Source: Candidatus Azambacteria bacterium
GTDB lineage: Bacteria; Patescibacteriota; Minisyncoccia; GWC2-36-17; WO2-46-25
Reading direction: 5' to 3'
Length of the DNA: 64,000 nucleotides
Assembly (NCBI GenBank): GCA_016234725.1
Contig: JACRAK010000012.1
Coordinates: 10,619-74,618 of the forward strand
The notes under the pieces are model-generated. The model saw only the letters and a list, made by a program, of their open reading frames with translations, made no database searches and was not told the DNA's origin. Position 1 is the first letter of the stretch; each line of letters opens with the position of its first letter. A program made the position numbers and the translations under genes. Below, one piece after another: positions 3,677-50,366 of the stretch.

Positions 3677-4011
3677 ACCCTTACGTCCTTTGTTTATTTT
3701 TTATATACTGTACGAAGCGAATTATACGAGGATTCGCGTATAAAAGTCAACCCCGTTACAAGCTTATATGAGGCATTCTTTATGTATTGACGCAAGCCGT
3801 AAGGCGGCTTCGCCTTGGCGCTCACATTAAGAAGAAAATCGTCGACGAGCTTGTAACGGGGTCAACAACACAGGAGCGGGGAAATAAGGGAAGTGCACAC
3901 GATATCCACATCATATCAACAGAAATTGTTCTTTTTCTCCTTGTTTTGCCCATTTCTGGAAATCTTTCCCAGGTGGTATACTTTGGGAAGATTTCTTTCG
4001 CCGCGGGATTT
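3677..4011. promoter_or_regulatory. rpmH<->dnaA divergent intergenic region with DnaA box and inverted repeats (oriC part / dnaA promoter)
   Basis: tATCCACAt at 3903-3911; 14-bp inverted repeat accccgttacaagc (3750-3763)/(3849-3862); extended -10 TGgTATACT about 3978-3986. Confidence 0.45.
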
Positions 4012-6975: not shown

Positions 6976-9459
6976 TTATCGTATGAGCGGTAGCTCATAC
7001 GTACCGACGTTGTCGTAGATGTCGTACGCGTGTACGGTGAGCGTGTGGGGCCTCGGGGAGAGTGGTGTGGCGCTTACGATCGTTTCATACGGATATTGAA
7101 AGGCGGAAGAGGCGAACCCATCGTCAAGGGAGAATGAAACCTCTTTGATCGGAAAGGGGGCGGCGATCGATGCGCGCGCGTAGAACGCGTCGGAAACGGC
7201 AGTGTAGGGAAGCGGATCAAGGACGATTATACGGGGCGTGTTTTGTTCCGTGTGGATGTCGTCAAATTGCGTAGGAGGCATTTCTGAGGGAACTGCAAAG
7301 GTTTTGTTTTCCGCGATCCAGTCGCGTATCGCAACTTCCCAGTTGTAATACTGCGGGTCATCCTGCGGGGTGAGCGGCGCGTCCCCAAGCGGATCGTTTT
7401 TATTGATGTAGTGAAGGATGCTGTGAACCTCCTTGAACGCCTTTTCTTCTATCTTATTGGGGGGCGTGCGCGCGGTGACGAGCTTGCGGGAGTCCTTGTC
7501 TATCTGTACCACCGTTTCCCCGATGTAGCTGCCGTTGAGAAGCGGCTTGGCGCTGTATATAGGCTCAGGAGGGGGGAATGATGCCGCTCCTTTTAACTGG
7601 ATCGCTTTTTCCATGAACGCGCGGAAGATAGGTCCTGCGGCGGCAATACCCGCGCCGCCCCGCTCCATCGGGGTTCCGTCGTTGTTGCCGACCCATATCG
7701 CAGCGGAAACGGACGGCGTATACCCGACCACCCATGCGTCGCGGTATTTTTGCGTGGTGCCCGTTTTTGCGGCGACCTGCGCGCTTTCAAAAAACAACGG
7801 ACTCCGTTCGCCAAACACCGGCGCGCGCAACGCGTTGTCGGAAAGGATCGCGGTGATGGTGCGAGCGACATTTTTTGAAAGCACCTCTTTCGATTTCGGC
7901 GCCCATTTTTCTATTATTTTCCCGCGCGCATCCTCGATCTTTAAAATAAACGCTTTTTCTTGCCGCACGCCGTCGTTCGCGAATACGCCGTAGGCATACG
8001 CCATGTCGAGCGGAGAAACTTCGCCGCCGCCTAAAACGAGAGAGAGACCAAGGGCGCTCGGGTCGGTGAGCGTGGTGACGCCCATGTCGTGCGCGAGAGC
8101 AACGACGGATTCCATTCCCGCGAGATACAGCACCTGCACCGACGGCACGTTGAGCGACTGCGCAAGCGCGCTTTTTGCCGATACCGGGCCGCGAAAGCGC
8201 TCATCGTAATTAAGGGGGATGTAGGACTGCAAAGGGTCTGCGGAGAACTCGGTCTTCACATCGAACAGCACGGTGTCGGGAGTAAATCCTTTCTGAAAAA
8301 AGGCGGCGTAGGCAAGCGGCTTGAACGAAGACCCCGGCTGGCGGTTCTTTGACGTGGTGACGTTGTAATTTCCTTCGCGCTCGATATCAAAATAATCGCG
8401 GGAGCCCACCATCGTCAGAAGCTGGCCTGTGGCCGGGTCGATCGCGGCAAGCGCGGCGTTCTGCGCGTTATATTTTTTCTCGTTTTCTTCTCCGATGCGC
8501 GCCACGATCTCCTCTGCGGTTTTTTGCAGCTCGTAGTCGAGCGTGGTGTATACTTTCAGGCCGGCGTTTTCCACGTAGTTCGCGCCGTACTTTTCTTCGA
8601 GGTAGTTTTTTACATACGCCACAAAGTGAGGTGCCTGTATGTCCGCGCGCTGTTTTTGAAAGAGAAGCGGTTCATTTTTCGCCCGTGCGAGGTCTTGCTC
8701 GGCGATAAACCCGACCTTCTGCATGCGCTCAAGCACGTTGTTCTTTCGCGCTATGAGTTCTTCTTTGTGCTGGCCGTACGGAGAGTAGTAGCTTGGCGCC
8801 TTCGGGAGCGCTGCGAGCAGCGCCGCTTCGTTGAGCGAGAGGGCGGCGGCGGATTTGCCGAAAAACGTCTGCGCGGCCGCCTCGGCGCCATAGGCGTTCG
8901 AACCGTAGGGGATCTGGTTCAAATAGAAGGAGAAGATCTCTTCTTTGGTGTAGCTTTTTTCTATTTTATACGAAAGCACTGCCTCCTTTATTTTTCTCGT
9001 GAGCGTTTTTTCCGGCGTGAGAAATGCGTTTTTCACCAATTGCTGGGTGATGGTGGATCCGCCCTGCGCCCTTTTTCCGCGCAACACGTCCACAAAGACC
9101 GCGCGGAGCAGCGAGCGAAGGTCGATGCCGCCGTGCTCGTAGAAATTAAAGTCTTCCGCCACGATCGTCGCGTCTTTCAGGTCTTGGCTGAAGCGGTCAA
9201 ACGGCACAACGGTCCTTTTTTCTTCGCCGTGCACCTCATACAGCAACACTGTGCCCGTGCGGTCATAGATCTTCGTGGACTCCGCCACTTTGCGCTCGCT
9301 GATCGTGAACGGGTTGGGCAGATCGCGCAGTAAAAATACGCCCGCAAGCGCGCCGCCCGCTCCTGCGACGAGGAGTCCTCCAAAAAAAAGAACAAGCATC
9401 GTTTTCATGATGCTCTTTTTCCGGGAGGGGGCATGCGTATAGCGTTTTCGACGTGGCAT
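6976..9459 (-). CDS. Class A penicillin-binding protein (PBP1A-type transglycosylase/transpeptidase)
   Basis: GT51 motifs (EDxxFxxHxG, GGSTITQQ) then transpeptidase SxxK/KTG; start set at MPRRKRYTHAPSRKK before TM helix. Confidence 0.8.
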   Translation of the reverse strand: MPRRKRYTHAPSRKKSIMKTMLVLFFGGLLVAGAGGALAGVFLLRDLPNPFTISERKVAESTKIYDRTGTVLLYEVHGEEKRTVVPFDRFSQDLKDATIVAEDFNFYEHGGIDLRSLLRAVFVDVLRGKRAQGGSTITQQLVKNAFLTPEKTLTRKIKEAVLSYKIEKSYTKEEIFSFYLNQIPYGSNAYGAEAAAQTFFGKSAAALSLNEAALLAALPKAPSYYSPYGQHKEELIARKNNVLERMQKVGFIAEQDLARAKNEPLLFQKQRADIQAPHFVAYVKNYLEEKYGANYVENAGLKVYTTLDYELQKTAEEIVARIGEENEKKYNAQNAALAAIDPATGQLLTMVGSRDYFDIEREGNYNVTTSKNRQPGSSFKPLAYAAFFQKGFTPDTVLFDVKTEFSADPLQSYIPLNYDERFRGPVSAKSALAQSLNVPSVQVLYLAGMESVVALAHDMGVTTLTDPSALGLSLVLGGGEVSPLDMAYAYGVFANDGVRQEKAFILKIEDARGKIIEKWAPKSKEVLSKNVARTITAILSDNALRAPVFGERSPLFFESAQVAAKTGTTQKYRDAWVVGYTPSVSAAIWVGNNDGTPMERGGAGIAAAGPIFRAFMEKAIQLKGAASFPPPEPIYSAKPLLNGSYIGETVVQIDKDSRKLVTARTPPNKIEEKAFKEVHSILHYINKNDPLGDAPLTPQDDPQYYNWEVAIRDWIAENKTFAVPSEMPPTQFDDIHTEQNTPRIIVLDPLPYTAVSDAFYARASIAAPFPIKEVSFSLDDGFASSAFQYPYETIVSATPLSPRPHTLTVHAYDIYDNVGTYELPLIR

Positions 9460-23026: not shown

Positions 23027-24115
23027 TTAGATCACCTCCTTTGTTTTGACATGCCCCCAAATTAACTGTAAGGCTTTAAGTTCAATTAATCGTGGAATCA
23101 TGATCTTAAAGAGTTTGCAGTATGGGGAAGAAGTGGTGGCTAGGTCATGAGCTCCAAAATTGATGACGGGACATCCGCCCCCACAAACAAGAGACCACTG
23201 GCAATCTTGACAGCCCTTGTAATCAAGCACATCTTTTGAATGTAGTTCGGGAAAAGTGTCTTGAGACCACGCCATTTCCAAAAAGGTTTTCTTGGTTTCA
23301 AGATTGCCTATCGGCTTTTTATCCATCCTTGCCTGGCAAACAAATACATTGCCGTTATGATCAACGGCTACGCCGGAATGGCCAAGATTGCACCCTCGTA
23401 AATGAGGCTTCCTATCGAGATGAATCTCGCACAGCTGTTGCGCGGCAACGGCGCTATGATTACGAATTGCAAGAGCGTAATAATCATAGCAATCATTAAG
23501 GGCGCTCGAAGCTTTTTTCATAAAGTCTTCGTATCCCTTAAAATCTCCTACATTATCCCGATATAGACCATAACGAAACGGAATGCTTGCATCAATCAAA
23601 AAACGGCTCAGCATAGGCACGCCGGAAATATTTCTATCCGTTATGGTTGTTAGTATCGTCGGGCGGACATCATTCCCCATGCATAAGTTCAGATTTTTGG
23701 CCACGACATCAAAAGAACCGGTGCCAGCGCCGAAGAAGCGTGTTTTGTTGTGCCACTCACCTAAACCATCTAACGACATACAGACCCTCACCGAGTTATC
23801 TTTAATCATCTTTATTAGATTAAGATCGAGCAGAGTCCCGTTTGTCAGTAAGATTAATTTAGCGCGAATACCTTTTTCTACGAATCGTTTCTGAGTCTGT
23901 TCGATCAAAAAATTAATCAACGTTTTATGCAGCGTGGGCTCTCCTCCAGCAAGACGTATTGTTACTAGGTCCAGACCGTGATGGCTTACAGTTTGTTCAA
24001 GCTTATCCAGATATAAGCTTGCTGTCTGAAAAGACATGAACTTTTTGTCCTTATTTATATAACAGTAAGGACATTTTAAATTACAGCAGTTGGCTATATG
24101 GAGCCATGTGCTCAT
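23027..24115 (-). CDS. Radical SAM/SPASM-domain peptide maturase A
   Basis: CNLKCPYC (CxxxCxxC) and C-terminal SPASM CQDCQWSLVCGGGC; start at MSTWLH (upstream TTG extension possible). Confidence 0.7.
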   Translation of the reverse strand: MSTWLHIANCCNLKCPYCYINKDKKFMSFQTASLYLDKLEQTVSHHGLDLVTIRLAGGEPTLHKTLINFLIEQTQKRFVEKGIRAKLILLTNGTLLDLNLIKMIKDNSVRVCMSLDGLGEWHNKTRFFGAGTGSFDVVAKNLNLCMGNDVRPTILTTITDRNISGVPMLSRFLIDASIPFRYGLYRDNVGDFKGYEDFMKKASSALNDCYDYYALAIRNHSAVAAQQLCEIHLDRKPHLRGCNLGHSGVAVDHNGNVFVCQARMDKKPIGNLETKKTFLEMAWSQDTFPELHSKDVLDYKGCQDCQWSLVCGGGCPVINFGAHDLATTSSPYCKLFKIMIPRLIELKALQLIWGHVKTKEVI

Positions 24116-24185
24116 GCCCTTAACATTGTTTTTTTCTAGACTAGGTCTAAACAGCGGAGCATCTTTTGGTTGAATAAGTCCGTTT

Positions 24186-24491
24186 TCAAGCAGAAGTTTT
24201 ATCCGTGGCAAATCTTTCTCGGTCTGAAAAAGGGACAGATTGTCTATAAAGAAGCTTAGTTCTCATGTCGAGCAGGACCACGCCTCTTTTGCTTCCAGGG
24301 ACAAGCGCATAACCATAGCCGTCTACTTCTCCTGTGTAACAATTACCCGTCTTTTTATATGCCTCTATTTCCCTCATTTTCTTTCCTCCGTAGGTTTTAT
24401 GATGTTGTAAAAGATCTTTTCGTATTTGTCTTTCTAATAACATAACAATAGCGTTTTTGTCAAATTCTTCATAAGAAGGGTTACTAATCAA
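24186..24491 (-). CDS. Hypothetical 101-aa protein upstream of rSAM A (non-ATG start)
   Basis: ORF with TTG start and no SD; possibly an accessory/RRE-like protein or not expressed. Confidence 0.2.
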   Translation of the reverse strand: MISNPSYEEFDKNAIVMLLERQIRKDLLQHHKTYGGKKMREIEAYKKTGNCYTGEVDGYGYALVPGSKRGVVLLDMRTKLLYRQSVPFSDRERFATDKTSA

Positions 24492-26601: not shown

Positions 26602-27681
26602 TTAGGGTGCCTGTGGTATTGCCGATGCTTTTTGGAGAAAAAGCTTGATGTAGTCGAACATCCTTTTTCTTGTCTCGCAAAAAGGGTAGTCTCCGCCATA
26701 GTTTCCTGTCGCCCAGTAGGAGTCGGCTCTGCATCCGCCACGACAAATTGCTACATATTCGCAACGGCCGCATTTTTCAGCATTGTGATTGCTTCTTATT
26801 TCAGCGAGCGCCTTAGTTTTTGATCCCGCTAAAGCATTGATCAGTGATTGGCTGAGGATGTTACCAAGCATAAACCTCTCTTCCACCAATGAACCACAGG
26901 GAACGATGTTTCCTTCTTGATCAATGGTGATCATTTTCTTTAAGCAAGAGTTAGCAAAGGAGCACCCTCTCGGTCTCTGGCCAAGAAGCGAGCGCATCAT
27001 TGTGTCGAGCGGCTCGATTGAGGGAAAAGAGTTTTCCGTATGCGCCCAAAGATCGAATACGTCCTTATAGAAAGCAAACATTTCATCGTTTGAGGGCATT
27101 ATCGGTCTTTCTGAAAGTGGCACGCTTTTTAGAGGCAGCAAGCCAAATGAGTTCACGCCGAGAGCTTCATAGAAATGAAATATCTCTTTGGCGCGAGAAA
27201 CATTTAGTTTACTTATAACAGAAAGAACACCAAGAGGCATGCCAGTCGCTTTTATTTCTGCGCAAGTTCTTAATAGCGCACTTATATCAGAGCGGCGATG
27301 AGCTATGTATACATCTGTTGGCGCATCAAGACTAATCCCCACATGGAAATCATTCTTTTGAAGAAAATCAATCCACGAGGCATCCAGCAAGAGGCCGTTT
27401 GTTTGGATGTTGTTGTGATATACAATGCCTCTTTTTTCCGTTTCCTCCTTCTGGGCATTTATTACTTCTTGATAAAAATTTTTACCAACAAGAAGCGGTT
27501 CGCCGCCATGCCAGCAGAACTCGACACTGTCAAAGCCGATGGAGGCATTATGAATCATAACCCTGATGTTTTTTATCTCGAACTTTTTTATGTTTCTTCG
27601 AGAGGCGCGTGAGTAACAATACACGCACTGAATGTTGCAGTCAGATCCCGTGATCATGATGATCGTCATGGCTTTCTTCAT
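26602..27681 (-). CDS. Radical SAM/SPASM-domain peptide maturase B
   Basis: CNIQCVYC and SPASM CGRCEYVAICRGGC. Confidence 0.7.
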   Translation of the reverse strand: MKKAMTIIMITGSDCNIQCVYCYSRASRRNIKKFEIKNIRVMIHNASIGFDSVEFCWHGGEPLLVGKNFYQEVINAQKEETEKRGIVYHNNIQTNGLLLDASWIDFLQKNDFHVGISLDAPTDVYIAHRRSDISALLRTCAEIKATGMPLGVLSVISKLNVSRAKEIFHFYEALGVNSFGLLPLKSVPLSERPIMPSNDEMFAFYKDVFDLWAHTENSFPSIEPLDTMMRSLLGQRPRGCSFANSCLKKMITIDQEGNIVPCGSLVEERFMLGNILSQSLINALAGSKTKALAEIRSNHNAEKCGRCEYVAICRGGCRADSYWATGNYGGDYPFCETRKRMFDYIKLFLQKASAIPQAP

Positions 27682-29226: not shown

Positions 29227-30534
29227 TTACACCACCAGCTCCAAAACATTTCTGCTGATAAGCTCGCTAAGAAAATGCAGATATTTTGCATTTTCCATAG
29301 AGATTTTATACATAGCGCGAAGAGATTTTGGAGTGAACGACAGTTTTTTGATGTGAATGTCTTCTATGAGATTCAGTGTCTCGTGCTCCACGAAGGTGTT
29401 TTTAATGCCACTCGTGTTGATTATCCCTAATGGTTCATCTCGGCGAAAGCGACAAGCTCTTCTTACGCGGAGCACCGTGTTGTTCTTAAGAAGCGCATGT
29501 GTTTTTGGAACCGCGCGTTTTTGAGCCATTTGTGCTCTCATGATCGAGTCTTCACCGTGAACATCGCCATTAAGGGAGGCGACTCGGCAGCCACCACCAC
29601 ACATAGCGACAAGCTTACAGGAAAGACAGGCCCGAGGAAGAAGAGATCCGTCACGCCACTGAACCATTTTTAACCAAATGGATTTCAAATCTTCAGTGGA
29701 AAGAGATCCATAAGCGATTTCGTGGTGGGGGCATGCGCGCACCGATCCATCTGAAGCAATGGCGATGGACGTTTTACCAGCAGAACAGGTTCGCTGACCA
29801 AGGAGGGAATAAGCATCGTCGTTGTCGAAAAAACAGATGGGGTAGGGAACGAGAGAGTCTAATTGCATGCCAGTGGTTTTCAGATCAAGTAGCTGGTCAA
29901 CAATTAAACCGACGCTTTTTATTGGAAGAGCGAGTTCCTTTGAAGACTGTTTGTTTGGTAAGCGCGGAGATGTAACGCGTGTCGCAGAAAATGCTACCAC
30001 CCCAAGCTTATGTGCAAACTCGCCAGTTTTTTTCACATCTAGCAGGTTTTGCTCCATTACAACCATATTTACAGCGGTGCGGATGCCGGCGGCATGAGCA
30101 CACTCAATACCCCGCACGATACGCTGAAAAGATCCTTTTGTGCCGGAAAGAGAATCGTGGGTATTGGAATCATACGATAAGAGCGATGTTAATATTGTTC
30201 GGAGTCCCACCGAAAAAAGCTCCTTTGCAATTTTTTCAGTAAGTAGAACAAGGTTTGAATTTAGGCTGAACGAGATTTTCCTCTTCGAAAGTTCCTTAAT
30301 GAGAAAAATAAGTTCGCCCTTATTTAGAAGTGGTTCTCCTCCTGTAAGTATGACGTGGAAAATCTTGTGGGCAGCAAGTTGCTCAGCAATTCGAATCGAC
30401 AACGCCTCCGAAATGCTTTTATTTGGAACTAATCCATCGTCTCGCCAAAAATTGTAGCAGTGGAAACATTTTTGGTTGCAGCCAGTATTGATTTCAACAT
30501 GAGCAGCTAGTGGAGCATCAAGCGTTTTATACAT
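29227..30534 (-). CDS. Radical SAM/SPASM-domain peptide maturase C with C-terminal PqqD-like (RRE-like) extension
   Basis: CNQKCFHC; SPASM CLSCKLVAMCGGGC; C-terminal about 110 aa …KKLSFTPKSLRAMYKISMENAKYLHFLSELISRNVLEL resembling PqqD/RRE; SD aaaaggaggctgtt. Confidence 0.7.
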   Translation of the reverse strand: MYKTLDAPLAAHVEINTGCNQKCFHCYNFWRDDGLVPNKSISEALSIRIAEQLAAHKIFHVILTGGEPLLNKGELIFLIKELSKRKISFSLNSNLVLLTEKIAKELFSVGLRTILTSLLSYDSNTHDSLSGTKGSFQRIVRGIECAHAAGIRTAVNMVVMEQNLLDVKKTGEFAHKLGVVAFSATRVTSPRLPNKQSSKELALPIKSVGLIVDQLLDLKTTGMQLDSLVPYPICFFDNDDAYSLLGQRTCSAGKTSIAIASDGSVRACPHHEIAYGSLSTEDLKSIWLKMVQWRDGSLLPRACLSCKLVAMCGGGCRVASLNGDVHGEDSIMRAQMAQKRAVPKTHALLKNNTVLRVRRACRFRRDEPLGIINTSGIKNTFVEHETLNLIEDIHIKKLSFTPKSLRAMYKISMENAKYLHFLSELISRNVLELVV

Positions 30535-47246: not shown

Positions 47247-48020
47247 ATGGATAGTAATCTTCTTTTGTTAAGCGTGGTGGTTGCGATCGCGGCGTCGTTC
47301 CTCGGCGTATTTATCATTCTTCGCCGGCTCGCGCTCGTGTCCGATGTGCTTTCGCATGTGGCGCTTCCCGGGGTTGCGCTTGCGCTGATTCTGGGCGTGA
47401 ACCCGTTTTTCGGTGCGTTTCTGGCGCTTGGAGCGGTGACCGTTGTTATTTTCTTCCTTGAGCGGCGGTTCGCGCTTTCCATCGATGCGATCGTAGGTGT
47501 TGCCTTCACCGTGGCGCTTGCGGTCGGTATGATCCTTATTCCGGATGAACACGCGGCAGAGGCGCTGTTTGGCGATATTGCCGCGATCGGGCGGGGAGAT
47601 GCGGTGTTTGGCGTGGCGCTCGGCGCGCTGCTCATCGCGCTTACTTTTGTGCTGTTTCGGCGGTTCGCGCACGCGACGTTCTCAAAGGAGCTTTCCCGGG
47701 ACGAGACGGTCGCGGATGGACGGGCGGAGTTCGTTTTTTTGGTCGCGCTTGCGCTTGCGATCGCGCTCGGCATTAAAGTGGTGGGTACATTGCTCATGGG
47801 CGCGATGATGATCCTGCCGGTAGTGGCGGCAAAAAATATCGCCTGGAGCTTAAAAAGCATGACGGCGCTTGCCATTGTGCTTGGAGTGCTTGAAATGGTG
47901 GGAGGGGTGTCGCTTGCGCAGGCATATGACACGGTTCCCGGCGCGGCGATCATTTTGATCGGCGGCGCGGTATTCGCGGTATCGCTGGTTTCGCGCGCCG
48001 TGGGGCGCGCGAAACCATGA
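47247..48020 (+). CDS. Metal ABC transporter permease (ABC-3/ZnuB family)
   Basis: 257 aa, 7-8 TM helices, adjacent to the ATPase. Confidence 0.7.
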   Translation: MDSNLLLLSVVVAIAASFLGVFIILRRLALVSDVLSHVALPGVALALILGVNPFFGAFLALGAVTVVIFFLERRFALSIDAIVGVAFTVALAVGMILIPDEHAAEALFGDIAAIGRGDAVFGVALGALLIALTFVLFRRFAHATFSKELSRDETVADGRAEFVFLVALALAIALGIKVVGTLLMGAMMILPVVAAKNIAWSLKSMTALAIVLGVLEMVGGVSLAQAYDTVPGAAIILIGGAVFAVSLVSRAVGRAKP

Positions 48021-48045
48021 GATAGGTTCTGACAGAGAAACATAA

Positions 48046-48078
48046 AAAACACTCCGCAAAAGAGCGGAGTGTTTTTTA
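48046..48078. terminator. Bidirectional terminator (aaaaaacactccgc-aaaag-agcggagtgtttttt)
   Basis: Perfect 10-bp stem with flanking A/T runs between convergent genes. Confidence 0.65.
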
Positions 48079-48096
48079 TGTTTGCGCGGGCAATGG

Positions 48097-48441
48097 TTAT
48101 TTTGCCGCCGCGACGATCTTTGAGAATATCACGGGGTGTTCTTTCGCGACGTGCGCGAGCATTTTTCTGTTGATCGCGATCTTGCTCGTGTTCAGCTTGT
48201 TGATGAGCGCATTGTAGGGGAGTCCGTTCTCGCGTGATGCCGCGTTGATCTGGACGTTCCACAGCGTGCGGAAATCGCCCTTCTTTTTTCTGCGGTGCGC
48301 GAACATGTAGCTGAATGCGTGCAGGGTCGCTTCACGCATGCGCGTGATCTTTGAATTTCTTCCCGAACGAAATCCTTTCGTGTGTTTCCGAAGATTCTTT
48401 CTCCTTTTATTCGCAATGGTCCCTCTTTTTACTCGTGGCAT
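48097..48441 (-). CDS. rplT: 50S ribosomal protein L20
   Basis: MPRVKRGTIANKRRKNLRKHTKGFRSGR…. Confidence 0.9.
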   Translation of the reverse strand: MPRVKRGTIANKRRKNLRKHTKGFRSGRNSKITRMREATLHAFSYMFAHRRKKKGDFRTLWNVQINAASRENGLPYNALINKLNTSKIAINRKMLAHVAKEHPVIFSKIVAAAK

Positions 48442-48581
48442 ACCCCGTAATACAACTTCGACTTGTTTTGCAAACGCAAAACAAGGAAATCGCTTTTAAT
48501 TAAAAATTAACACATATTCGCATATAATGCGTGTTGCGAAAAAATCGTTTATATATTGTCGAAGTTGATATACGGGGCATA
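48439..48581 (-). promoter_or_regulatory. about 143-nt long-stem RNA structure (two helices, 11+10 bp, 3x3 internal loop) whose 3' arm contains the rplT AUG
   Basis: Arms cataccccgtaatacaacttcgac (48439-48462) / gtcgaagttgatatacggggcata (48558-48581); homologous element precedes rpmI. Confidence 0.5.
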
Positions 48582-48586
48582 TTTTT

Positions 48587-48781
48587 TTATCGAGAGAACG
48601 GCATTTTATCGCGCATTTTCGGGGCGTCGGTACCGGCGACCGCTCCAAACCCGCGCTTACTTCGTTCCGCTTCTCCTGTTTGTCGTGCGTTAAAATGATT
48701 CTGACCGATGGTGCGCCGCATGAGCTTGCCTCGCGCGGTTACCTTTATTCTTTTTGAGACCGATTTGTTTGTTTTTTGCAT
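48587..48781 (-). CDS. rpmI: 50S ribosomal protein L35
   Basis: Start at MQKTNKSVSKRIKVTARGKLMRR…. Confidence 0.8.
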   Translation of the reverse strand: MQKTNKSVSKRIKVTARGKLMRRTIGQNHFNARQTGEAERSKRGFGAVAGTDAPKMRDKMPFSR

Positions 48782-48921
48782 ACCCCGTATATCAACTTGG
48801 ATAATATTCACATTATCGAAAGTTGTAATAAATAATTATTCTTGCGTATATCCTTTAGCATGCCCCCGCGCAAGGTCTTTCGCATGCGAAAGACCAATCC
48901 AAGTTGTATTACGGGGCATAC
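48779..48921 (-). promoter_or_regulatory. Second copy of the long-stem structure; 3' arm contains the rpmI AUG
   Basis: Arms cataccccgtatatcaacttggat (48779-48802) / atccaagttgtattacggggcata (48898-48921); stem-end bases covary with copy 1 (cgac/gtcg vs ggat/atcc). Confidence 0.5.
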
Positions 48922-48923
48922 TG

Positions 48924-49427
48924 TTATTTTCCTAATACCGTTATAAATCCTGACGGAAGCTGCTTGATGGGCTGCTCTACGGTGTGCTCCATGGTTACCT
49001 TGCTTAAAAAGAGCACAAACCTCTTTCGCGCAAACTCTTTATTCGCCCGCTCCCTTCCCCGCAAGAACATCTCAACCTTTACCTTATACCCTTCTTTGAG
49101 AAATTCTTCAAGCTGCTTGATCTTGATCATCATATCGTGCTCTGACGTCGCTTGGCCGATCTTTACCGCTTTCAGCTCCCCCGCTTTATGTTTTACCTTC
49201 TGTTTTTTAAGCTGTTTTTCCTGCTGGTAGAGATATTTGCCCAGATTGATGATCTTTGCAACAGGGGGCACGGCGGTGGGGGCGATCTCGACGAGATCAA
49301 GCCCTTTCTCGCGCGCCGCATGCAAGGCCGCCGCAAGGTCCATGATGTCCAAATTCTTTCCCTCTTCGTCGATCACCCGTAATTTCGGAGCCCGTATTTG
49401 ATTGTTGACCCGTGGTTTTGGTGCGAT
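48924..49427 (-). CDS. infC: Translation initiation factor IF-3 (non-AUG start)
   Basis: Frame extends upstream of the GTG at 49376: …IAPKPRVNNQIRAPKLRVIDEEGKNL (canonical IF3 N-term); probable AUC/AUA start about 49427/49394. Confidence 0.75.
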   Translation of the reverse strand: MAPKPRVNNQIRAPKLRVIDEEGKNLDIMDLAAALHAAREKGLDLVEIAPTAVPPVAKIINLGKYLYQQEKQLKKQKVKHKAGELKAVKIGQATSEHDMMIKIKQLEEFLKEGYKVKVEMFLRGRERANKEFARKRFVLFLSKVTMEHTVEQPIKQLPSGFITVLGK

Positions 49428-49476
49428 TGCCGTTGCGTATTACTGATAACTACCGGTTGTTCCGGTGGTGTATTTG

Positions 49477-49850
49477 TGGAGATGGCGAGAGTTGAACTCG
49501 CATCCAAAAAGCTATTCACACTATTTCTCCAAACGTAGGTTGTTTGTTGTTCTCGCGTGCCGGCTGGAAAGCAACCAAAATGCCGGAACGTACAGCCGCT
49601 TAGCTTAACGATACGCTGCGGCGGCGTATCGCGCAACCTGATACTATAACACCGGAGGCCCACCTATCAGGCGTTAGCAGGTCCGATGGCAAGAGTACTA
49701 GACCCTTGCGAAAGAAAGAGGAGCAAAGCTTAACGCTATTGCATTCTTTACTTTTGAGAATAAGTTTGCACTTATTGGTGTGTGCCGCCGTTTTCCGAGC
49801 AGGCGACGACCTCGGTCTGCATAGTGTGAAAAGAACTCTCTGTCAAAGCC
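49477..49850 (-). ncRNA. ssrA: tmRNA (SsrA)
   Basis: 5' GGGGAUGUUGGGCUUUGACAGAG…; 3' tRNA-like T-arm GCGAGUUCAACUCUCGC and acceptor CAUCUCC pairing with 5' GGGGAUG; adjacent to smpB; CCA not encoded. Confidence 0.75.
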
Positions 49851-49916
49851 CAACATCCCCGAAACTATAAAACATAAAACATGGAACTTGAAACATAAAA
49901 CTAAAAGATTCAAGTT

Positions 49917-50366
49917 TTACGCTTCATGTTTCATGATTTTTGCTTTCTCGCGTGTAAACTCTTTTTTCTTGATGTCCTCACGCTTTTCGAACTTCTTTTT
50001 CGAGCGTGCGAGGCCGAATTCAAGCTTGATTTTACGACCCTCATTGTACAGCGAAATGGGAATGAGTGTCAAGCCTTTTTTGGCCGTTTTTCCTGCAAGT
50101 TCAGCGATCTCCCGCTTGGTCAGCAAGAGTTTTCGCGGGCGGGTTTTATCATACCCCGCGGGCGTGTTCTGGGGCTGGTAGGGCGCGATAGGCGCATTGA
50201 TCCAAAACGCCTCGCCGCCGCGGATGATGACGAAGGAACCAGCAAGGTTCGCCTTTTTCGAGAATGCCGCCTTCGCCTCAAAACCAAAAAGCACGATGCC
50301 TGCGCGGTATCGGTCAAGTATTTCATAGTCAAATAACACTTTTTTGTTTTCAGCAAGTAAGGCCAT
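49917..50366 (-). CDS. smpB: SsrA-binding protein SmpB
   Basis: MALLAENKKVLFDYEILDRYRAGIVL… canonical SmpB. Confidence 0.9.
   Translation of the reverse strand: MALLAENKKVLFDYEILDRYRAGIVLFGFEAKAAFSKKANLAGSFVIIRGGEAFWINAPIAPYQPQNTPAGYDKTRPRKLLLTKREIAELAGKTAKKGLTLIPISLYNEGRKIKLEFGLARSKKKFEKREDIKKKEFTREKAKIMKHEA

Follow-up and report, generated by a model that had tools for sequence, protein, structure and literature searches.

The stretch of DNA under study (the window, 64,000 nucleotides of contig JACRAK010000012.1 from a Candidatus Azambacteria bacterium) contains the infC-rpmI-rplT operon on its minus strand, directly 3' of the gene for the transfer-messenger RNA (tmRNA). Both spacers of this operon are occupied by one element of 134-135 nt each, called here A (infC-rpmI) and B (rpmI-rplT). 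[quoted passage not shown] The original prediction, made from the letters of this DNA, had offered two readings of these structures, namely operators through which the ribosomal protein L20 would repress its own operon, or a pair of MITEs. It is the second that is borne out by the inverted terminal arms, the 4-bp duplications, the empty sites in relatives and the many dispersed copies.

Two elements on the start codons of rpmI and rplT

A and B carry arms of 23 nt each, with 83% complementarity. On the mRNA, A has CCCCGUAAUACAACUUGGAU as 5' arm and AUCCAAGUUGAUAUACGGGG as 3' arm, and B has matching arms with the central triplet inverted. The arms pair as a 7-bp helix, a 3x3 mismatch and a 10-bp helix, and the start codon lies within the 3' arm. 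The mRNA strand of both elements folds into an outer helix of 11-12 bp, a 3x3 internal loop (AUA/AUA in A and UAU/UAU in B) and an inner helix of 10 bp, with energies of -53.6 (A) and -50.3 kcal/mol (B) and z-scores versus shuffled sequences of -6.2 and -7.0, respectively. The start codons of rpmI and rplT are both found within ...ACGGGGUAUG, at the identical position of the 3' arm, and the hairpins that had been drawn over them are real. The helices of 11 and 10 bp first proposed match this fold, but four base pairs of the outer helix come from the flanking TATG repeats, outside the element proper. Furthermore, the two spacers had been described as carrying homologous elements, which is right for the arms but not for the interiors of A and B, where the comparison in direct and inverted orientation gave no significant similarity. 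The arm core CCCCGTANNNCAACTT has four exact matches in the window, all confined to the arms of A and B; one extra site with two mismatches at position 7322 is apparently due to chance, as about one match with up to two mismatches is expected. The coordinates are displayed in Table 1.

Table 1. Positions in the window of the elements, the duplications that flank them and the genes next to them
Feature	Position	Strand	Remarks
infC stop codon	48926-48924	minus	
Element A, 134 nt	48783..48916	minus	infC-rpmI spacer
TATG duplication of A, upstream copy	48917..48920	minus	ATG at 48919-48917, 4 nt past the infC stop
TATG duplication of A, downstream copy	48779..48782	minus	holds the true rpmI start codon, 48781-48779
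Short open reading frame (ORF) in A, MPRNTTWIGLSHAKDLARGHAKGYTQE, 27 codons	48836..48919	minus	opened by the upstream ATG copy; putatively translated
rpmI	48781-48587	minus	
Element B, 135 nt	48443..48577	minus	rpmI-rplT spacer
TATG duplication of B, upstream copy	48578..48581	minus	ATG at 48580-48578, 6 nt past the rpmI stop
TATG duplication of B, downstream copy	48439..48442	minus	holds the true rplT start codon, 48441-48439
Short ORF in B, MPRISTSTIYKRFFRNTHYMRICVNF, 26 codons	48500..48580	minus	opened by the upstream ATG copy; putatively translated
rplT	48441-48097	minus	followed by a terminator-like hairpin
Third fold-back element, sister family, 111 nt	3751..3861	minus	14-nt arms CCCCGTTACAAGCT

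The locus was compared with those of relatives (designated by L numbers, as are the other loci below) whose L20 is 94% (L001), 93% (L246), about 90% (L244), 88% (L002) and 80% (L003-L005, where L003 and L004 match L005) identical to that of the window, a protein of 114 aa that shows 94% identity to P0001. Among the best L20 matches (94%, 93% and 88% identical), the first and the third come from sources named Patescibacteria group and Azambacteria. All the relatives are syntenic (smpB, tmRNA region, infC, rpmI, rplT and an ABC-3 transporter), their infC-rpmI and rpmI-rplT spacers measure only 1-18 nt, and there is no hairpin or element at either spacer in five of them (L001, L002, L005, L244 and L246). 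BLAST versus L001 revealed that positions 48915-48783 and 48574-48443 of the window are exactly lacking there, and that the flanking alignments overlap by the repeat.

A single TATG is present at the empty sites of L246, L001, L002 and L244. The empty infC-rpmI site reads TAAcacTATGcaaaaa in L246 and TAAaaaTATGcaaaaa in L001, and TAA-cac-TATG-caaaaa in L246 corresponds to TAA-cag-TATG[CCCCGTA...TACGGGG]TATG-caaaaa in the window. Likewise, at the rpmI-rplT site, which reads TAAatacTATGccacgag in L246, TAA-atac-TATG-ccacgag corresponds to TAA-aaaaa-TATG[...]TATG-ccacgag. The N-terminus of rpmI read from the downstream copy, MQKTNKSVSKRIKV, aligns with the rpmI genes called in relatives. A and B are insertions with a 4-bp target-site duplication made on start codons, and they are younger than the split from lineages with about 87% DNA identity. 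An assembly artefact was rejected, since the flanks are collinear with those of the five relatives and each copy has its own interior.

It should also be noted that rpmI (window 48443-48916) stands between two inverted copies whose outer 4-nt flanks are identical, which is formally the layout of a composite transposon. The same bracketing by inverted copies was observed in L178 (2191-3596) and in L146 (2493-3726, with yceG). A scan for promoters and terminators in positions 48000-49950 gave counts no higher than those of shuffled sequences, with no convincing outward promoter in the elements.

A dispersed family and its insertion sites

The arm motif CCCCGTANNNCAACTTNGA was scanned in one genome per species (GTDB), which gave mostly single matches due to chance (about 1000 were estimated by chance) and 23 complete two-armed elements. 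Nearly all of these 23 are on contigs labelled Saccharibacteria, Doudnabacteria, Yanofskybacteria, Parcubacteria or Patescibacteria, and one chromosome of 805 kb (OY970216.1) carries at least five copies. The scan of metagenomes with a two-armed pattern added at least 120 contigs, largely of groundwater type by their sample names, and viral contigs scanned with this pattern gave no match. At least 145 distinct complete copies were obtained in all, and the family counts given below are among these copies listed. The copies measure 68-249 nt, mostly 114-147 nt, and the sole ORFs in them are short and incidental (10-47 codons).

Identical 4-nt flanks, of at least 14 kinds, surround 118 of the 145 copies (TATG 40, TTGA 23, CTTG 18, TAAA 10, TGAA 10, TTTG 4, CGTG 4, TGAG 3 and few others). 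Both flanks change together from site to site, also among copies with related interiors, and no single consensus was found for the 4-nt targets, except that position 1 is a pyrimidine and position 4 a purine. What is common to the family is the 20-nt terminal inverted arms alone, CCCCGTA-NNN-CAACTTNNNN. In 110 copies one arm has ATA as central triplet and the other TAT, which gives a mismatch, and one subfamily has a perfectly paired triplet (CTA/TAG). Between copies the interiors are unrelated; the 110 ATA/TAT copies fall into clusters of no more than 10 and are mostly singletons.

Terminal inverted repeats of 20 nt, a duplication of fixed length that depends on the site, a small size with no transposase coding, multiple dispersed copies and presence/absence polymorphism between relatives are all criteria of MITEs that were seen here. 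The arm sequences were found in no paper, and the literature gave nothing specific on MITEs in Patescibacteria, Saccharibacteria or the Candidate Phyla Radiation; the family of fold-back elements is apparently undescribed. Its site precision, covarying arms, fixed mismatch and free interiors are unusual.

The CTA/TAG subfamily (L053, L059, L078, L087 and L093) has at least six copies in the metagenome-assembled genome binchicken_co232_111, all of them on TATG start codons. This genome is labelled Gammaproteobacteria, and one more copy of the subfamily is on a contig labelled Methylomirabilota (L021); both labels may be genuine or due to binning errors.

A sister family, with the ends CCCCGTTAGA... 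or CCCCGTTACA..., occurs on the same contigs and with the same set of duplications (TAAA, TTGA, TGAA and TATG). The third fold-back element of the window belongs to this sister family. It is flanked by TTGA repeats at 3747-3750 and 3862-3865 (minus-strand reading) and lies between rpmH and dnaA, where it is placed exactly on the -35 box of a promoter (TTGACT-18-TATAAT) that precedes rpmH (ATG 3676-3674). Other copies of the sister family were observed at L012 5042-5151, L097 1135-1232, L146 3616-3726 and L137 8214-8281, among others, and in L012 one of them is nested within a copy of the main family.

Concerning the sites of insertion, a start codon is the exact site of 49 of the 145 copies and the TTG of a -35 box that of 30; 22 are directly next to another copy, in 11 the duplication includes a long ORF's stop codon, and 33 are unclassified. 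Housekeeping genes (rpmI, rplT, cysS, pth-mfd and yceG) are among those flanked by copies. Gene starts at TATG were scored after rebuilding the empty site, by counting those in which the ATG is the earliest start of an ORF that has 60 codons or more, with no more than 20 open codons upstream. By this measure, 24 of 37 TATG sites are strict gene starts versus 10.3% of all TATG in the same contigs (p = 3e-15). In the start-codon class, the stop codon of the preceding gene is within 18 nt in 27 of 49 copies, and therefore the placement of the window's elements in a tight operon is typical.

The TGAA class has an A before all of its copies (10/10), which makes ATGAA the original site. Here the downstream copy follows the terminal G of the element (G-TGAA), which rebuilds a GTG start, and the original ATG is left upstream; the genes concerned include a translational GTPase and peptidyl-tRNA hydrolase (Pth). 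This cut shifted by one base, with the rebuilt GTG, was observed in L135, L136, L145, L166, L170, L178, L181, L203 and L229. Of the TTGA, CTTG and TTTG sites, 79% have a -10 hexamer 16-18 nt downstream that matches at 4/6 positions or more, versus 15.5% for background TTGA; for matches at 5/6 or more, the share is 51% versus 3%.

Tandem arrays, with up to at least four elements parted only by the 4-nt repeat (CTTG, CGTG or TATG), were also observed (L213 7891-8085 and 11276-11627, L140, L201, L128 2412-3010, L222 and L089 820-1182). Insertion was repeated at one TATG in L128/L222 and at one CTTG in L213/L140, which hints at real hot spots. On a sober reading, the preference for some tetranucleotides together with purifying selection in genomes that are about 91% coding explains much of the site distribution. 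If about one tenth of the TATG were non-coding, start codons would in any case make up about half of the TATG sites that tolerate an insertion.

Arm structure, orientation and a possible mechanism

The structure of the arms was analysed in 100 distinct arm pairs. Positions 1-7 and 11-16 are nearly invariant and paired, positions 8-10 are mismatched, and positions 17-20 vary freely yet stay Watson-Crick paired (for position 20, CG 31, UA 30, GC 20 and AU 11), with pairing ending at position 21. In total, 98.2% of the arm cells are paired versus 30-44% in the control with the partner shifted by 1-3 columns, and the double-sided changes, all at positions 17-20, number 140 versus 33 +/- 7 in shuffles. 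The covariation of the stem ends between A and B (cgac/gtcg versus ggat/atcc), which had been read as a sign of selection on structure, is real and family-wide at these positions, but it is a property of the element and not of L20 binding. Either the folded hairpin matters to the element, as DNA or RNA, or there is templated repair between the arms.

Moreover, the ATA arm is upstream in 35 of the 36 ATA/TAT copies at start codons versus 22:15 at -35 sites (Fisher p = 1e-4), where the element lies outside the transcript. A has this usual orientation and B is the sole reversed copy (1/36). In the usual orientation, the right arm GUUGAUAUAC bears a UGA 13 nt before the real AUG, and the reversed arm is free of stops in all frames. 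In 20 of 51 start-codon copies, the ORF of the upstream ATG (MPRNTTS...) is open through the interior and stops in the right arm 11-13 nt before the real start, at the UGA or, in the CTA subfamily, at a UAG. Such through-ORFs are present in 5/51 and 2/51 in the two other frames of these copies (p = 2e-6), and in 11/61 and 10/61 in two comparable frames of the non-start copies (p = 0.02). They fit selection for translational coupling through the element, with a moderate effect.

As for the mechanism, we infer an enzyme, supplied in trans, that would make 4-bp staggered cuts, in the genome of the window at the TATG of the rpmI and rplT start codons. Such a cut would have duplicated the ATG, with rpmI and rplT both left intact. 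Across the family, a few tetranucleotides are preferred as targets (TATG, TTGA, CTTG, TGAA and TAAA), and in these genomes, which are roughly 90% coding, the surviving copies are almost only those on start codons, on the TTG of -35 boxes, on stop codons or beside older copies. On the mRNA, the hairpin of each element (about -50 kcal/mol) would bury the real AUG, and the upstream ATG copy would retain the native position just past the preceding stop codon. A ribosome starting or re-starting at this upstream ATG could translate the short ORF through the 5' arm and melt the stem, after which initiation at the real AUG would become possible. The probable role of the duplicated ATG is thus to open a short ORF, translation of which would unwind the stem.

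Several observations weigh against this account of mobile elements and their translation. Neither an autonomous copy nor a transposase turned up in the window or in the 1.66 Mb of loci that were fetched, and the argument for mobility is therefore one of structure and insertion polymorphism alone; this negative is a weak one, as the metagenome scan was limited to short two-armed copies. Arm pairs 300-6000 nt apart and relaxed arm searches yielded only housekeeping genes (cysS, pth-mfd and yceG) or two small copies, and CCCCGT...ACGGGG end pairs 400-4000 nt apart yielded only housekeeping genes or two separate small copies. Pfam found no transposase in 20 mid-size ORFs of the window, which are housekeeping ones. 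This genome shows two copies plus one of the sister family in the 64 kb examined, and the copies within one genome have no common interiors, which is unusual for a MITE burst. The covarying arms are unexpected for ordinary transposase-binding repeats and point to a hairpin intermediate or to templated correction. Concerning translation, the excess of through-ORFs over the non-start copies is modest, and the short ORFs of the window end 57 nt (A, after traversing the 5' arm) and 61 nt (B) before the real AUGs. Tight termination-reinitiation coupling is therefore inapplicable here, and only a weaker version, where translation of the 5' arm unwinds the stem, could apply in the window.

A bolder proposal is put forward tentatively. 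The elements could form an undescribed fold-back superfamily specific to Patescibacteria (with CCCCGT... termini), whose machinery would actively target the first bases of -35 hexamers and start codons, with the sites being more than the outcome of selective filtering, and which would need the folded hairpin of 20 bp with its fixed mismatch of 3 nt. This superfamily would have evolved translational transparency via a short ORF that runs from the duplicated ATG to a stop in the right arm, 11-13 nt before the real start.

Alternative explanations and wider meaning

That the hairpins are autoregulatory operators of L20 (or L35), mimicking its 23S rRNA site and sequestering the start codons, is highly improbable. 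It is true that the start codons are buried in stable stems and that L20 autoregulates rpmI-rplT in E. coli and B. subtilis. The known operators (the rpmI leader pseudoknot of E. coli and the L20 leader of Firmicutes, RF00558) share with the window the operon and an RNA structure near the rpmI start. However, they are conserved within lineages and mimic the L20 site of 23S rRNA, whereas the structures of the window are not conserved at rpmI and rplT in related genomes, being absent in the five syntenic relatives, whose L20 is 80-94% identical. Across genomes, more than 140 unrelated loci carry these arms (64 kb were examined within this genome), including the start codons of unrelated genes (the translational GTPase and Pth) and positions upstream of promoters. 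The window contains no 23S rRNA with which the hairpins could be compared, but the internal loops differ between A and B, which indirectly argues against a common protein site. Rfam at the gathering score matched only the tmRNA in the whole window, and at E-values up to 10 it gave no L20 leader or any other family at the elements (48350-49000).

Elements of mobile origin could also have been co-opted later as regulators of the operon, either as RNase III sites or as attenuators that set the IF3:L35:L20 ratio, perhaps via A:B pairings enclosing rpmI, and this too is unlikely. The central triplet puts A and B in opposite orientations, and each arm of one copy is fully complementary to the opposite arm of the other (5'A with 3'B and 3'A with 5'B). 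Over all 521 nt, the fold of minimum energy favours the resulting perfect long-range helices (-167 kcal/mol, z = -5.6). Nevertheless, this cross-pairing is automatic because the two copies are in opposite orientation, the insertions are lineage-specific, and the orientation of B is almost never kept at start codons, so that it looks tolerated and not selected. In favour of a regulatory role, ribosomal-protein genes adjoin all three elements of the window, and the Correia elements of Neisseria present in mRNA are cut by RNase III at the inverted repeats and can affect expression (PMC10969869).

Another possibility concerns the route of movement. The family could move via a folded single-strand hairpin, in the manner of IS200/IS605 ends, integron attC and the attP of CTX phage, or via an RNA intermediate, and not by DDE cut-and-paste. 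Positions 17-20 covary as pairs, the mismatch at positions 8-10 is retained and position 20 is where the helix comes to a sharp end; moreover, the interiors vary freely, like the variable terminal structure of attC, and the same site is struck repeatedly to give tandem arrays. This route remains rather doubtful, however, as 4-nt duplications that vary with the site, even when the interiors are related, are the mark of staggered double-strand cuts, and we know of no single-strand system that produces them. One kind of target carries copies in both orientations, genes for a HUH enzyme, a tyrosine recombinase or an integrase were not seen near copies, and templated correction between nearby inverted repeats could mimic the covariation. 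The ends of IS200/IS605 with their PATE derivatives, and attC, do resemble the family in their conserved covarying structure, unpaired stem bases and variable distal part, but in those systems the target is not duplicated, and they are linked with a TnpA or IntI gene and with cassette arrays, whereas this family has site-dependent 4-nt duplications, both orientations and no such genes nearby.

Among specific candidates, an element of IS200/IS605 type (no duplication, insertion 3' of a fixed tetra- or pentanucleotide that the element dictates, and one orientation) was rejected since the flanks co-vary by site and both orientations are found at TATG in the window. An integron attC (RYYYAAC / GTTRRRY cores at the outer ends, a place at the 3' ends of cassettes in an array by intI and no duplication) was rejected since the ends are CCCCGTA / TACGGGG, the copies flank housekeeping genes and duplications are present. 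Correia (CREE/NEMIS, Neisseria) and ERIC (enterobacteria) elements are similar to the family in their size of about 100-150 bp, terminal inverted repeats, absence of a transposase gene, intergenic location and long hairpins on mRNA. Correia elements duplicate TA, whereas this family duplicates 4 nt, which led to the rejection of a Correia element, and its arm sequence is not known to match the 26-bp repeat of Correia elements. Unlike Correia and ERIC, this family has unrelated interiors, covarying arm positions and copies that are nucleotide-exact on start codons and -35 boxes. In Geobacter uraniireducens, the MITE named Chunjie (work of 2008 cited in PMC10969869) presents, as far as that account tells, the same situation as A and B inside infC-rpmI-rplT. 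It is given there as a separate family of 178-235 bp with the whole sequence conserved between copies, and no link with start codons or -35 boxes is described in that account.

Other features of the window are worth recording. The tmRNA gene directly upstream of infC is at 49474-49860 (minus) and has a predicted tag of 23 residues, ANLFSKVKNAIALSFAPLSFARV; no tRNA gene was found across the 64-kb window. The infC frame is open and IF3-like (..IAPKPRVNNQIRAPKLRV..) at 49377-49425 (minus), upstream of the first ATG, GTG or TTG, and the start of infC is therefore probably a non-canonical codon (ATC or ATA, for instance); the infC genes called in relatives encode 131-202 aa. Three radical-SAM/SPASM proteins (23027-24211, 26602-27681 and 29227-30534) are encoded within 8 kb, beside ORFs with no Pfam matches, and this group may be a peptide-modification cluster.

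With A and B read as insertions of a transposable element, long hairpins over start codons in Patescibacteria should not be taken as conserved riboregulators during annotation, and such arms can be masked as repeats. The presence or absence of copies between close relatives could make them strain markers in groundwater metagenomes, and the family offers natural experiments on initiation at an AUG that is enclosed by a hairpin of about -50 kcal/mol. The genomes of Patescibacteria are tiny, densely coding and thought to be poor in mobile elements, and a repeat whose survival relies on the duplication of a start codon, a stop codon or a -35 box edge illustrates how transposons can spread where hardly any DNA is to spare. 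If the superfamily proposed above were real, its translational transparency would let it colonise the tight operons of minimal genomes, those of ribosomal proteins included.

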